UHGV virus genome: UHGV-0114795
From: a virus
Reading direction: 5' to 3' (one strand)
DNA: 37,954 nucleotides
A program made the position numbers and the translations under genes. Position 1 is the first letter of the stretch. Each line of letters opens with the position of its first letter. The notes below the pieces were generated by a model. That model saw only the letters and a list, made by a program, of their open reading frames with translations. It was not told the DNA's origin and did not search any database. This document shows positions 1,009-7,083 of this stretch, piece by piece.

Positions 1009-1083
1009 GTCCTCTTAGTTAAATGGATATAACGAGCCCCTCCTAAGGGCTAATTGCAGGTTCGATTCCTGCAGGGGACACCA
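1009..1083 (+). tRNA. argW: tRNA-Arg (anticodon CCU)
   Basis: 75 nt read from sequence: acceptor stem GTCCTCT/AGGGGAC, anticodon loop with CCT flanked by stem AGCCC/GGGCT, T-loop GGTTCGATTCC, 3' CCA encoded. Known prophage integration target. Confidence 0.9.
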
Positions 1084-1244
1084 TTTATCAGTTCGCTACC
1101 ATCCGTACCAGTCCGCAAAATCCCCTTAATATCAAGCCTTCCGTAGATTCACAGTTCGTCATGGTTCGCTTCAGATCGTTGACAGCCGCACTCCATGACG
1201 GGTAAAAAGTGGATAAAATAATTTTACCCACCGGATTTTTACCC

Positions 1245-2402
1245 ATGCTCACCGTTAAGCAGATTGAAGCAGCAAAGCCGAAAGAAAAACCATACCGCCT
1301 TCTCGATGGTAATGGCCTGTACCTTTATGTCCCTGTATCCGGGAAAAAGGTATGGCAGCTTCGCTACAAGATTGACGGTAAGGAAAAAATACTGACCGTA
1401 GGAAAATATCCGCTTATGACTTTGCAGGAGGCAAGGGATAAAGCATGGACTGCGAGGAAAGACATCTCGGTTGGCATCGATCCGGTAAAAGCGAAAAAGG
1501 CTTCGTCTAACAACAACTCCTTTAGCGCCATTTACAAGGAATGGTACGAGCACAAGAAGCAAGTCTGGTCAGTAGGCTATGCAAATGAACTTGCAAAAAT
1601 GTTTGATGACGACATTTTACCCATCATCGGCGGCCTTGAAATTCAGGATATTGAGCCGATGCAACTGTTGGAAGTAATCCGCAGATTTGAAGATCGCGGC
1701 GCAATGGAGCGAGCAAACAAAGCACGCAGAAGATGCGGCGAGGTTTTCCGTTACGCTATTGTCACCGGAAGGGCTAAATATAACCCGGCACCTGACCTTG
1801 CTGACGCCATGAAGGGATACCGCAAGAAGAACTTCCCGTTTCTTCCTGCAGACCAGATCCCGGCATTTAACAAAGCACTTGCAACATTTTCAGGAAGCAT
1901 CGTATCGCTCATTGCGACCAAAGTTTTACGCTACACAGCCCTAAGAACGAAAGAGCTTCGTTCCATGCTATGGAAGAACGTCGATTTTGAAAACAGGATT
2001 ATCACTATCGACGCCAGTGTGATGAAGGGCCGCAAGATTCATGTTGTTCCTATGTCAGACCAGGTGGTTGAACTTCTCACTACGCTAAGCTCAATCACCA
2101 AACCAGTATCAGAGTTTGTTTTTGCCGGTCGCAACGATAAGAAGAAGCCAATCTGCGAGAACGCGGTACTGCTTGTGATCAAACAAATCGGCTATGAAGG
2201 TCTGGAAAGCGGTCACGGATTCAGGCATGAATTCAGCACGATTATGAACGAGCACGAATGGCCTGCTGATGCTATTGAAGTGCAACTGGCACATGCCAAC
2301 GGCGGATCTGTGCGCGGGATTTACAACCATGCTCAGTATCTAGATAAGCGCAGAGAAATGATGCAGTGGTGGGCGGACTGGATTGATGAAAAGGTAGAGT
2401 GA
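1245..2402 (+). CDS. intS: Tyrosine recombinase, P4-like prophage integrase (CPS-53/KpLE1 IntS type)
   Basis: 385 aa from ATG at 1245 (MLTVKQIEAAKPKEK...), recalled as essentially identical to E. coli K-12 IntS next to argW; ORF-track start at 1209 (GTG) is probably an upstream extension. C-terminal catalytic region with R...H..R...Y pattern. Confidence 0.85.
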   Translation: MLTVKQIEAAKPKEKPYRLLDGNGLYLYVPVSGKKVWQLRYKIDGKEKILTVGKYPLMTLQEARDKAWTARKDISVGIDPVKAKKASSNNNSFSAIYKEWYEHKKQVWSVGYANELAKMFDDDILPIIGGLEIQDIEPMQLLEVIRRFEDRGAMERANKARRRCGEVFRYAIVTGRAKYNPAPDLADAMKGYRKKNFPFLPADQIPAFNKALATFSGSIVSLIATKVLRYTALRTKELRSMLWKNVDFENRIITIDASVMKGRKIHVVPMSDQVVELLTTLSSITKPVSEFVFAGRNDKKKPICENAVLLVIKQIGYEGLESGHGFRHEFSTIMNEHEWPADAIEVQLAHANGGSVRGIYNHAQYLDKRREMMQWWADWIDEKVE

Positions 2403-2529: not shown

Positions 2530-4455
2530 CTATAGCAATCTTATTTCTCCACCATGAACATTTATTGGCGTCATAAGAAGCGGACTCTCTACTACGACAA
2601 ACCCATTTTCATTACTTATAACCGGAGTCTTTGATTCATCAGATGTTGAAATAACCATCGCTTTATCTCCTGCCACAACACCTAACCAAAACCATGTCCC
2701 CAAGTTATGATCTATCTTCAATGCTAAAAAAATAAGCTGTGTATCAGAGTATTGTATTTGCGTTGTCCATTTTGCTCTAGTGTCTGAACCTGAAACCTCT
2801 GTAGAGACACTTGCGCCAACTGTATGTGCAGCAGAGCTACCGTTACTCATTTTGCCGTTAACAAGCTGCGGGTGGTATTTACTGGTCTGTTTGGCTTTCC
2901 CTACAACTGAACTAAGTCCTAAATCCGGGTGGTAGAAAACTATAGTCTGGTCTACTGTGCTGGCCTCTTTAGCGGATGCAGCAGGTAGTGTTGTACCGCC
3001 TGGTTTTATATCTGTTTGCCAGTGAATGTCGGAAAGGTTGTACGGAGACCCTTCGTTAAGGTCCCACCAAACTGCCCCTCCTCCAATACGGTTATTAGGC
3101 ATAATTCTTACGTTGGTATTGTCGTCGAATGCACCAAACATTTTCATACTGCTACCGTAAATCCAGCAGTTATCCAGCGTAATGTTATTTGCGCTCGTTG
3201 CTATAACCCCATACACATTGCTTTCGTTTGACTCTATGTAGCATGAATCAAACTTGATGTTATATGCACCTGCAATCCAAACACCGTGAGTACGAAAACT
3301 TTCAATACCACAGTTGAACAGCGTAAGTGCCTCTACCGCACCTTCAAACTTAAAACCTACATCACACTCTCCTGTGTGAACCGATACTAATGGCTGAATG
3401 TTGCATTCATCAGTAAAGTGATAGCGATGCAGACCAGTAGTATATGTACCATTGCACTGAAGATTGCGAAATAAAGAGTAAAAGCAGCGCTGAGTGTAAA
3501 CCAACTGCTGGACATTTACTCCAACAATATCTGTAACCTCGCATCCAAATACATGATTCCGCAAACGTAACCCCTGATAGAAATTAATCAGTGTGGCATT
3601 GCGAATTATTGTTCCTATGGTTAGATACTCTTCACCAGACTTTCCAAATACAGAAGATATAGCACCACTAGAAGCTATATAACCAGTCTCAATGAATACG
3701 TTATTTTCGTCGGAAGTATCGTCGCGGCCTACGATGCGAGCGCCCTGAAAATCGATCACTTGCACCCGACGATTAGGGAAATTAGTTTCTTCAATGTCAG
3801 ATGGAGATTCTGAAGCCAACACATAAACTTTACCGGCGATGTAATAGCTTTTCCACGGAGTGGCTACTACTTTAACACCACCTGCACGCCACGCAGCAAT
3901 CAGAGCGGCCTGAAATGCGTGTGTGTCGTCATGCTTGCTTGGGTTATCTTCTCCGTTCAATAAGTAGGCATCGCCATACGCACCAAAGTCATCTACATTA
4001 ATTTCCTGATTAAAGTAGTCAGATGCTTTTCTGGTTGCAGCATCAGCATAAGGCTTCTTAAATGAAATATAAGAAGCACCATCATCAGATGATAAGCGCG
4101 AAGAAAGTTGATCAGGGTCATACTTCAGCACATTAGGGAAATAGAACTGCTGCGATCCATACGCATCATAAACAGCCATAGAATGGCCTTGCACAGTTAC
4201 GAACTTAGCAATCTGTCCGTTATATACCGGGTAACCAGCAGCGTTAATGATGATTGGTTGCGAAACAGGAACGTGAGAGCCGTCTTCGTTCTCCACATAA
4301 ACCTGAATCTGGTTTTCGGGATTTACCGGGTCCGTGTCAATTTTACCGATATAAATTTTACCATTAGCATTTGCTTTAAACGAGCGAGCTAAAGTAAATA
4401 ACTGACTTGGTTGTGAAACAACAACGTTGTATAATTGTTCTGGCATAATAAACAT
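2530..4455 (-). CDS. Tailspike protein: P22 gp9-like N-terminal head-binding domain fused to a divergent receptor-binding domain of unknown specificity
   Basis: N-terminus ([66 protein letters not shown]) closely resembles the P22 tailspike N-terminal domain from memory; the remainder does not resemble P22 gp9. True start may be the ATG at 4446. Confidence 0.8.
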
Positions 4456-4468
4456 TCCGGAGAAAATA

Positions 4469-4969
4469 ATGAGTAAGAGACGTCACGAGGTAGTAACTCG
4501 GGAGCGCCTTATGGAGGTTCTCGATTACAATAAAGAAACAGGAATTTTCACTTGGAAAAAGAAATTAAGCGCCAGAGGTGCTGTTGGGAAAGTTGCTGGC
4601 ACAATTTCTTATGGATATAACGCGATTAATATTGATGGCGTAAGATATTTTGCACATAGACTTGCCTGGCTGTATGTATATGGCGAATGGCCCAAACAAG
4701 AGATTGACCACATTGATAGAAACAGAAGAAATAACGCAATCTCAAACCTTAGGGATGTTAGCAGAGTCGTAAATGCATTAAATGTCGGACCTCGAAATAG
4801 CAATGCTGGAATCAAGGGGGTAACTTTCTGTCAAGCCAGAAATCAATGGCAAGCTCAGATAAATGTCTCAGGTAAAAACATAACCCTTGGGAGATTCAAC
4901 ACCATTGATGAAGCGGCTATAGCTTATAAGGCAGCAAACATGGTTGCTGACCATCTGTTGAGTAGGTAA
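4469..4969 (+). CDS. HNH homing endonuclease with C-terminal AP2-like DNA-binding domain
   Basis: HNH_3-like motif ([36 protein letters not shown]) followed by AP2-like segment ([40 protein letters not shown]). GGAG 6 nt upstream of ATG at 4469. Opposite strand to both neighbours. Confidence 0.7.
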
Positions 4970-5026: not shown

Positions 5027-5052
5027 ATTTTGGGCATAAAAAAACCCAGCCG
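5027..5052 (-). terminator. Intrinsic terminator downstream of ant (minus strand)
   Basis: Hairpin CCCAGC-CGAA-GCTGGG with a run of seven A on the plus strand (U-tract on minus strand transcript). Confidence 0.55.
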
Positions 5053-5079
5053 AAGCTGGGTCGTTGCGTTGGTTATCTG

Positions 5080-5961
5080 TCAGTAGTTATGTACTGAAGG
5101 AGGTAATTCTTTATTCTTAAGTCTCATCCATGCGGAAAGATTCGTTGGTCCGTCTGGCTCATTAATATCAACATCTCGTGTGTGGTTTATTAAAACGTCT
5201 CTCGCCATTCCGATAACATACGAGAATTCATGACCGTAGTCGTAGCATCTGCCGGAATAGTTCGATTGAATTTGTTTTAGCGCCGGATACAGTTCGCGGA
5301 ATAATGCCTGTGAGCGGTTGGCATAATCCCATAACCATACAAGGTTGTTTGCTTCTTTTGCAGAAAGCTCGTTGGTTTTCTTCTCTTGTTTGCCAATGAA
5401 CTCACCTTCAAGCACTACCCTGTGGATGTACTCTACGGCCAGCGGGATTTGTTCAATTGAAAGTTCATCAATGCTGTCAATACCAAAACGCTGATGAACC
5501 ATATTGTATGCATCGTCATAGCGAAGTCCTTTCTTTCCTACCAGCATGTTTACTGCATCGCGTAGCGGCGTTCTTTCCTCAACAGTGGTTTTCTTGCCTT
5601 TCACATACTCGCCATGTTTGCGAATTGAAGGTAGAACTTCTGCTGTTACCCACTTGCGGAATTTGTGCGGGACCGAACCTTTATTGACAGCATCGCGGCA
5701 GCGCAGAACCAATGTATACATACCTGATTCGCTAACAATGCTTAGATTCTGCTCACCACCAAGGGTGTAACTTAAAGTTACTCCCTTTTCATCGTCATCA
5801 AGTGCAGTAAGCGCCTTGCGTGAGTTAGTCAGGGTTAAAGCATCACAAACATCTTTTGCTACAAACCACGGCTCACCGCATTTGTTGATGACGCGGATTT
5901 CACTGTCGCCGAATTTGAAGATGGTGAAATCGTTTTGTGCCTTTGCTATACTTTTCATGTC
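5080..5961 (-). CDS. ant: Antirepressor (Bro-N/KilA-N N-terminal domain), P22 Ant-like
   Basis: Position downstream of arc in immI operon; N-terminal [25 protein letters not shown] pattern typical of Bro-N antirepressors. Start chosen at ATG 5961 (AGGAAA upstream) rather than the ORF-track start at 6024. Confidence 0.75.
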
Positions 5962-6026
5962 AATATTTCCTAATCCGATTTGTTGATACCGAAGCCCTGA
6001 CTGTTCCCGCAGTTGGGGCTTCAACT

Positions 6027-6188
6027 TTACGCGCCAATGCGCCCTTCCTTCTTAAAGCTTTCCATTACTCTCTGATAAATCTCAGAGTTAACAGACCGAC
6101 CATTCTCTTCCGCCACCTTGCGTACCAAATCCAATACTTCTTTAGGCCACCGCAAATTGAACTGCGGCATCTTGCTCATTCCTTTCAT
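6027..6188 (-). CDS. arc: Arc repressor (ribbon-helix-helix)
   Basis: [53 protein letters not shown], recalled as P22 Arc (53 aa) with at most one substitution; ORF-track entry 6027..6251 is an upstream extension. Confidence 0.9.
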
Positions 6189-6204
6189 ATTCACCTCACA
6201 ATAT

Positions 6205-6221
6205 AGGTCCACCGTGGACCT
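6205..6221. promoter_or_regulatory. Mnt operator (Omnt), 17-bp palindrome
   Basis: AGGTCCACCGTGGACCT read directly: perfect 8+1+8 inverted repeat in the arc/mnt divergent region, matching the known P22 Mnt operator arrangement. Confidence 0.75.
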
Positions 6222-6230
6222 ATTGAGAAT

Positions 6231-6251
6231 ATAGTAGAGTGCTTCTATCAT
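6231..6251. promoter_or_regulatory. Arc operator (Oarc)
   Basis: ATAGTAGAGTGCTTCTATCAT with TAGA..TCTA symmetry, between the arc start and mnt; matches remembered P22 Arc operator. Confidence 0.75.
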
Positions 6252-6278: not shown

Positions 6279-6530
6279 ATGGCTAGAGATGATCCGCACT
6301 TTAACTTCCGTATGCCTATGGAAGTAAGGGAGAAATTAAAATTCAGGGCGGAGGCGAATGGGAGATCAATGAACTCCGAGTTGTTACAAATCGTCCAAGA
6401 TGCTCTATCAAAACCATCGCCTGTGACTGGATATCGCGACGATGCAGAACGACTCGCTGATGAGCAGTCAGAGCTTGTTAAGAAGATGGTGTTTGATACG
6501 CTGAAGGATTTGTACAAAAAACCCACCTGA
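6279..6530 (+). CDS. mnt: Mnt repressor (maintenance of lysogeny; represses ant)
   Basis: MARDDPHFNFRMPMEVREKLKFRAEANGRSMNSELLQIVQDALSK... recalled as near-identical to P22 Mnt; GGAG 8 nt upstream of ATG. Confidence 0.9.
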   Translation: MARDDPHFNFRMPMEVREKLKFRAEANGRSMNSELLQIVQDALSKPSPVTGYRDDAERLADEQSELVKKMVFDTLKDLYKKPT

Positions 6531-6548
6531 AGGTGGGTCCTATTTATT
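6519..6548. terminator. Bidirectional intrinsic terminator between convergent mnt and lipoprotein gene
   Basis: Hairpin ACCCACC-TGAA-GGTGGGT flanked by AAAAAA on one side and a T-rich stretch (CCTATTTATT) on the other; the mnt stop codon lies in the loop. Confidence 0.6.
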
Positions 6549-6966
6549 AGTCTTGCTTTGTTGATGGTATAAGAGATGCGTTTGCCTCTTTTGGCTTCAA
6601 GGTATACATTCCACCATTAAATGGATCTACAGCAAGCCAACCAATTAACCCACCAAACACAAGGTTCCCACCAATATACCAACCATTAGCATTGGCTTTG
6701 ATTGGCAGGGTAACTGGTTCATACCCATCCTTCTCCATAGTGATCTGGTAGTTCTTTTTGCCAAAATAGCTACCATCTGACTTGGCGAGCGTTACACCTT
6801 GTGGGGTCCTACCTTGCGCAACAATCACACCTGACTCATCTTTTACCTTAAAGCTCGCGCCAGAAGGATTGCTGTTCACTTGCACAAGTTGCGTTTCATC
6901 ACCAACAATAGTTGCGCACCCAGATAACATCATAGCGCCAGCAACGACGCCAATAATCCTCTTCAT
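6547..6966 (-). CDS. Predicted lipoprotein of unknown function at the P22 sieA position
   Basis: Signal peptide with lipobox (MKRIIGVVAGAMMLSGC); possible PEGA-like segment (VNSNPSGASFKV); glycine-rich C-terminus. No confident homologue recalled. Start could be 6978. Confidence 0.6.
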   Translation of the reverse strand: MKRIIGVVAGAMMLSGCATIVGDETQLVQVNSNPSGASFKVKDESGVIVAQGRTPQGVTLAKSDGSYFGKKNYQITMEKDGYEPVTLPIKANANGWYIGGNLVFGGLIGWLAVDPFNGGMYTLKPKEANASLIPSTKQD

Positions 6967-7083
6967 ATCAATTTCCATATTTAAAAAACCGGAAACATCC
7001 TAATGACAAACCATTCAAATGTGAAGTAGGCAAAAGATGTTTACTTTTTTCATGGTATCCTGCTCAAAACTAAGGAGGTTGGT

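Follow-up and report, generated by a model that had tools for sequence, protein, structure and literature searches.

A P22-like prophage tailspike joining a Kapi1/Sf6-type anchor to a predicted beta-helix receptor-binding module of an uncharacterised family

The virus genome UHGV-0114795 is a stretch of 37,954 nucleotides (nt), here called the window, whose sequence identifies it as a P22-like (Lederbergvirus) prophage integrated at argW. Megablast of the window finds matches to phages IME10, Louie, APC_JM3.2 and P22 at the portal, terminase, coat, gp10 and gp16/gp20 genes. The element considered here is its tailspike gene, a homologue of P22 gp9. The gene occupies the end of the P22-like late region, past immI (mnt-arc-ant) and beside int and att. 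The program-made list of open reading frames (ORFs) gives a single long ORF at 2530-4455 on the minus strand, which encodes 641 amino acids (aa) counted from the first ATG. Residue numbers refer to this 641-aa frame unless the 638-aa frame, starting at Met4, is named. The true start is probably the ATG at 4446 (Met4), because all close database homologues are 638 aa long with the N-terminus MPEQLYN, the annotation of phage Kapi1 uses the same start, and a GGA lies 9 nt upstream of this ATG while none precedes the one at 4455. The upstream ATG was rejected on these grounds. The features of the gene are as follows.

2530-4446, minus strand: tailspike gene (gp9 homologue), 638 aa from the probable start, as placed by homologue starts and upstream sequence
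2530-2532, minus strand: tailspike stop codon
4455, minus strand: upstream in-frame ATG of the ORF (641-aa version)
4105-4446, minus strand: head/tail-binding (anchor) domain, residues 4-117, from PF09008, structure-database matches and identity to Kapi1
4006-4104, minus strand: linker or neck, residues 118-150, from alignment, with one short helix and a low predicted local distance difference test score (pLDDT)
3031-4005, minus strand: predicted right-handed parallel beta-helix, residues about 151-475, the presumed glycan-binding and glycan-cleaving module, which starts with the cap motif ...DDT
2533-3030, minus strand: predicted C-terminal beta-sandwich, residues about 476-641, ending GGEIRLL; a beta-strand model with pLDDT about 85-90, separately exchangeable

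The N-terminal module is a head-binding domain. Residues 4-116 match the whole Pfam profile PF09008 (Head_binding) at E = 4.1e-64, and a sequence search of the Protein Data Bank (PDB) returns matches confined to the N-terminus. These are Sf6 gp14, whose match spans query residues 7-165 and is near-identical over the head-binding part only, and P22 gp9, which aligns through its residues 5-118 with query residues 9-121. Identity over the domain is 113/114 to Kapi1, 100/114 (88%) to Sf6 and about 70-74% to P22. The original prediction held that the first roughly 110 residues track the N-terminal domain of P22 gp9, and these matches, which lie far above chance level, bear it out. Its label of a P22-type anchor is true of the wider class, but the nearest domains are those of Kapi1 (99%) and Sf6, and in sequence closeness the module is of the Kapi1/Sf6 type rather than the P22 type. 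Tailspikes of the gp9 family are defined as homotrimers, present in six copies per virion. Homology of the anchor domain makes trimer formation probable here also; the structural model described below is of a monomer.

The similarity to Kapi1 ends abruptly. Homology detected by blastn extends at 97.3% nt identity from the antirepressor gene to window position 4106, which is ORF nt 350 in codon 117 (between KYDPDQL and SS), and is not seen again until 2388, within the 3' end of int. A cassette made up of the entire receptor-binding part and a short spacer downstream of it has therefore been replaced. Kapi1 has the same ant-HNH-tailspike-int-argW order, but its 791-aa spike (Kapi1_067) carries an unrelated receptor-binding part, with identity at noise level past residue 117. 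In blocks of 30 residues, identity to Kapi1, Sf6 and APC_JM3.2 drops from 80-100% to 10-30%, which is noise level, past residue 120. Among 5,426 complete E. coli genomes, 1,111 match the tailspike gene, nearly all of them over nt 1 to about 350 only. Protein and DNA comparisons thus both support the domain swap that had been proposed. The junction had been expected near residue 110; a sharp boundary does exist, but it lies at residue 117 and is not the only one. In three relatives (P0107, P0109 and P0111), identity is 87-100% as far as about residue 470 but only 23-47% from about 480 to 630, where their variant C-terminus matches PF23504. This comparison places a second exchange boundary near residue 475. 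Linker residues 118-150 are, by alignment, in part common to relatives with other anchors.

The structure of the remainder was modelled with AlphaFold2 as a monomer from a 20-sequence alignment. Over residues 150-638 the pLDDT is about 85-95, and the chain forms many short beta-strands in a beta-helix-like arrangement, followed by a beta-sandwich. The anchor region is modelled poorly, only because few sequences of the alignment include it. Matches to this part are Geobacillus virus E2 ORF18, PfbA, AlgE4, Klebsiella Depo32, phi29 gp12 and the HK620 and CBA120 spikes, all at 9-19% identity, and Foldseek searches of PDB and BFVD are in agreement. On this model, residues 151-475 are a right-handed parallel beta-helix of the pectin-lyase/depolymerase fold, in agreement with the beta-helix depolymerase character originally read from composition. 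The composition itself (G 8.8%, S 9.0%, T 7.1% and N 6.5% in the C-terminal part) is mildly rich in Gly, Ser and Thr; the Asn richness claimed alongside is not marked. The C-terminal beta-sandwich likely serves in trimer stabilisation, accessory glycan binding or both. All the testable defining features of a P22-like tailspike are present: the anchor domain, the genomic position and the beta-helix.

Sf6 gp14 and P22 gp9 (7sg7, 2vbk, 2xc1, 1lkt) share the order of head-binding domain, right-handed beta-helix and C-terminal domain. Identity in the beta-helix is nevertheless about 12% to Sf6 and 18% to P22 (full-length alignment), with a template modelling (TM) score of about 0.5 at best. Neither the specificity nor the active-site residues of the two can be transferred to the window spike. 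Because the closest solved structures are only 10-19% identical, glycan specificity cannot be transferred from them either, and the view that it is not readable from sequence alone stands. Searches of PDB and the phage collection returned no full-length match to a characterised tailspike.

The receptor-binding part belongs to a small family that occurs on several anchors. Exhaustive HMMER comparison of residues 120-641 with 1.84 billion cluster representatives (clustered at 50% identity) yields 166 clusters at E <= 1e-3, 12 of which lie below 1e-30 with 37-59% identity. The N-termini within the family include Head_binding, Tail_spike_N (TSP1/gp66-type) and Phage_tail_fib (myovirus-type fibre N-termini). 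Among GTDB species representatives a scan turned up no relative, and a search of IMG/VR returned three near-identical loci only. Assemblies of E. coli and Salmonella commonly contain uncharacterised proteins with 94-99% identity over their full length, for which NCBI already uses the name 'phage tailspike protein'. One member of a cluster of near-identical proteins (P0003) is labelled 'phage tailspike protein [Bifidobacterium longum]', which almost certainly reflects a contaminated or mis-binned metagenome assembly.

Two members show the domain in quite different phages. A 650-aa spike (P0108, locus L021) is encoded on a 43-kb contig together with a tape-measure protein, tail tube, PolA, SNF2 helicase and methylase, a sequence that marks its source as a lytic, uncultured, Kagunavirus-like siphovirus. 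This spike is 93.7% identical in nt over window positions 4011-2590, and the blocks across residues 241-540 are 100% identical in aa, yet it has an N-terminal anchor of its own (MSSGCGDVLSL...). Among cultured phages the closest receptor-binding domain, and the only close one, is the 520-aa second spike (XXQ42883) of Escherichia phage vB_EcoP_P64441 (Slopekvirinae), with 68.7% aa identity over residues 145-641. That phage, a lytic podovirus of the SP6-like type, encodes an endosialidase as well, and this second spike has a 24-aa adaptor-type N-terminus in place of the head-binding domain. Horizontal exchange of receptor-binding domains across phage genera has been described by Pas et al. (PMC10408124) and Humolli et al. 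(PMC11990801), and the sharing with these two spikes is an instance of it.

Conservation within the family points to a candidate catalytic centre. The counts derive from about 140 homologues, down to E = 1e-3, aligned to the family hidden Markov model.

3232-3303, minus strand: candidate catalytic centre on two adjacent rungs, from conservation across homologues, with a putative catalytic role
3301-3303, minus strand: codon of Glu385, motif CGIE
3238-3240, minus strand: codon of Tyr406, motif CYIE
3232-3234, minus strand: codon of Glu408, motif CYIE

Glu385 is conserved in 140/142 sequences, Tyr406 and Glu408 each in 138/138, and Asn352 in 135/141; in the 638-aa frame these are Glu382, Tyr403, Glu405 and Asn349. 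The 23-residue spacing of Glu385 and Glu408 equals one turn of the helix, so that the motifs NCGIES and SCYIES are stacked, with a Cys ladder on the flanks. The endoglycosidases of P22, Sf6 and HK620 have carboxylate pairs at the active centre. By analogy, the Glu385/Glu408 pair is a candidate hydrolytic centre, and the invariance of these residues with Tyr406 suggests a putatively active glycosidase.

Evidence on the receptor comes from the carriers of the domain. In Salmonella, three abundant spike alleles (198, 184 and 64 contigs) adjoin hutI-hutG-hutC. The nine sampled loci, which represent two alleles 38 nt apart, differ by 0-2 single-nucleotide polymorphisms (SNPs) across 2,817 nt of the hut chromosomal flank. 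Their immI regions vary (SieA, Clp protease, HicAB, with or without HNH). One Salmonella background has thus received several different prophages, which favours a serovar-specific glycan, and for one allele the recorded source is serovar Rubislaw str. A4-653 (O:11). In all nine loci (L005-L013) the spike is the last prophage gene and abuts hutI-hutG-hutC without an adjacent integrase; the spike cassette therefore rides on prophages with another integration module and several immI regions. In E. coli the domain is rare. Sensitive blastn finds it in 3/5,426 complete genomes, against 1,111 for the anchor, which would be unexpected if the receptor were a widespread glycan such as colanic acid or enterobacterial common antigen (ECA). 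The O-antigen clusters of the three carriers were read from their galF-gnd regions.

E. coli EC6: spike intact, 90% aa identical; O cluster 'O60 family' wzm/wzt with gmd/rmd
E. coli HKUOPY1: spike a decayed remnant; O cluster O75
E. coli 2017.06.05CC: spike a decayed remnant; O cluster O91

The heterogeneity of these clusters prevents a clean O-type call. In an O-antigen-specific receptor-binding protein subtype in the sense of Pas et al. 2023 (PMC10408124), a single O serogroup would be expected in every carrier or host; the sampled Salmonella carriers have one background, labelled Rubislaw/O:11, and the E. coli carriers have the three clusters listed. Literature searches for the structure of Salmonella O:11, or for a stated E. 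coli counterpart, found neither. The receptor is most probably a rare O-antigen, and the only named candidate is Salmonella O:11 (Rubislaw), plus an E. coli O type. Of the complete E. coli genomes, EC6 alone has a spike of this type that is intact (L014, NZ_CP182398.1 1811252-1813563); its colanic-acid manC is split by IS5, and an IS1 lies within its O-antigen cluster.

The same anchor is also found on O16-specific spikes, those of CurroJimenez/Bas106, Huey, Dewey, Louie and APC_JM3.2, which share in addition a distantly related first half of the beta-helix. Identity over residues 3-328 is 45%, mostly owing to the anchor; past it the value is about 25%, and in the C-terminal half there is no similarity. 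The O16 dependence of CurroJimenez has been demonstrated experimentally (PMC11990801), but this specificity cannot be extended to the window spike.

We consider it highly probable, taken as a whole, that the gene encodes a Kapi1/Sf6-like Lederbergvirus tailspike composed of an anchor, a beta-helix endoglycosidase and a beta-sandwich, with a rare O-antigen as receptor. To the observed domain identities, fold, junctions and occurrence of the domain on other phage anchors a mechanism can be added. (i) Three modules, residues 4-117, about 151-475 and about 476-641, would have been joined by recombination. (ii) Residues 4-117 would plug the trimer onto the tail hub. (iii) The most likely function of the beta-helix is to bind a polysaccharide on the host surface and to cut it, as an endoglycosidase, through Glu385 and Glu408, with Tyr406. 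(iv) Through this cleavage the virion would reach the outer membrane. (v) The beta-sandwich most likely stabilises the trimer. Several points weigh against this interpretation. The nearest solved structures are far removed (10-19% identity) and permit no transfer of specificity, and searches of PDB, the phage collection and the literature found no characterised member of the receptor-binding family. The serovar name depends on a single database label. Among the three E. coli carriers no two share an O-antigen cluster; two of the spikes are decayed, and the third is only 90% identical. A more detailed proposal is tentative, and we give it somewhat less than an even chance. It holds that this is a small depolymerase family with a G-I-E ... 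C-Y-x-E signature, specific for a rare O-antigen common to Rubislaw (O:11) and a few E. coli lineages, and that the cassette moves nearly unchanged (93.7% nt) among temperate podoviruses, lytic siphoviruses and dual-spike SP6-like phages, in two genera.

Other targets and activities were weighed against an O-antigen-cleaving spike. The target might be a capsule (K antigen) or another exopolysaccharide, as for CUS-3 or K1-5. We regard this as unlikely, though it is the strongest of the alternatives. K-type capsules are generally lacking in non-typhoidal Salmonella, where the O-antigen is the likelier serovar-specific glycan, and the Salmonella carriers all lie in one serovar-level background. 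The O-antigen is moreover the target of most characterised Lederbergvirus spikes (PMC11990801, PMC10408124). A serotype-independent glycan of E. coli and Salmonella, for example colanic acid or ECA, would explain why near-identical spikes (94-96%) occur in both genera and why the E. coli carriers differ in their O clusters. The best PHROG, 8280, which matches residues 10-434, is moreover annotated 'tail spike protein with colonic acid degradation activity' (sic). Such a receptor predicts a wide distribution, however, and the domain occurs in only three of the complete E. coli genomes, with one background for all sampled Salmonella carriers. The presumed members of PHROG 8280 (APC_JM3.2, Huey, Dewey, Louie and CurroJimenez) are about 25% identical past the anchor, and one of them, CurroJimenez, depends on the O16 O-antigen (PMC11990801). 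Colanic acid was not adopted from the PHROG label, which is an annotation only, with a score largely driven by the anchor and presumed members that include an O16-dependent phage. We consider a common glycan very improbable, the least credible of the alternatives. The beta-helix might instead be a non-enzymatic adhesin, or act as a deacetylase or lyase rather than a hydrolase, which we judge to be improbable, ranking between the other two. Two strictly conserved Glu residues and a Tyr on adjacent rungs, in about 140 homologues, would fit a carboxylate glycosidase centre, and an adhesin has no reason to hold Glu and Tyr invariant.

The neighbouring genes are those of a P22-like immunity and integration region at argW, where Kapi1 also integrates (PMC8787464).

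1-933, plus strand: yfdC
1009-1083, plus strand: tRNA-Arg(CCT) gene argW, the prophage attachment site, from ARAGORN, with the same context in EC6
1209-2402, plus strand: IntS-type tyrosine integrase, convergent with the tailspike, from Pfam and the EC6 annotation
4469-4969, plus strand: HNH_3/AP2 endonuclease, divergent from the tailspike, from Pfam and the Kapi1 annotation
5080-6024, minus strand: antirepressor (Bro-N/P22_AR_C), from Pfam
6027-6251, minus strand: arc, from Pfam
6279-6530, plus strand: mnt, from Pfam

The convergent gap between integrase and tailspike, 2403-2529, is 127 bp long. No gtrABC/oac O-antigen-modification genes lie between the two, unlike the arrangement in Sf6, P22 and the K-12 CPS-53 remnant. 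The HNH_3/AP2 gene is free-standing, about 22 bp from the tailspike start. It is co-inherited with the head-binding module in Kapi1, and among the Salmonella spike loci it is present in L005-L007 and absent from L008-L013. A possible role is that of a homing-type element favouring exchange at the anchor end of the tailspike gene. Just past the antirepressor gene, at 5043-5062 on the minus strand, is a strong terminator-like hairpin, GACCCAGC-TTCG-GCTGGGTT, followed by T7. Expression of the tailspike would therefore need late-operon read-through across the antisense HNH gene. At 6547-6978 (minus strand), between mnt and the gene-16-type DNA-transfer gene, in the sieA slot of P22, lies a gene for a 143-aa predicted lipoprotein with a signal peptide, a lipobox-like LSGC and no Pfam match. 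This protein could represent a moron or take part in superinfection exclusion.

The chimera is not unique to the window. Such mosaicism is textbook knowledge and the norm for P22-like phages, in whose tailspikes the swapping of anchor and receptor domains is long established (PMC10408124, PMC11990801), and for this reason no concept is changed. What is new here is only that this receptor-binding family is uncharacterised, and the practical value is modest. Were the glycan identified, the spike would be one further depolymerase with serotype specificity, or a typing reagent, possibly directed at Salmonella O:11 (Rubislaw). It would also illustrate cleanly how temperate and lytic phages, in both E. 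coli and Salmonella, share a receptor-binding cassette.
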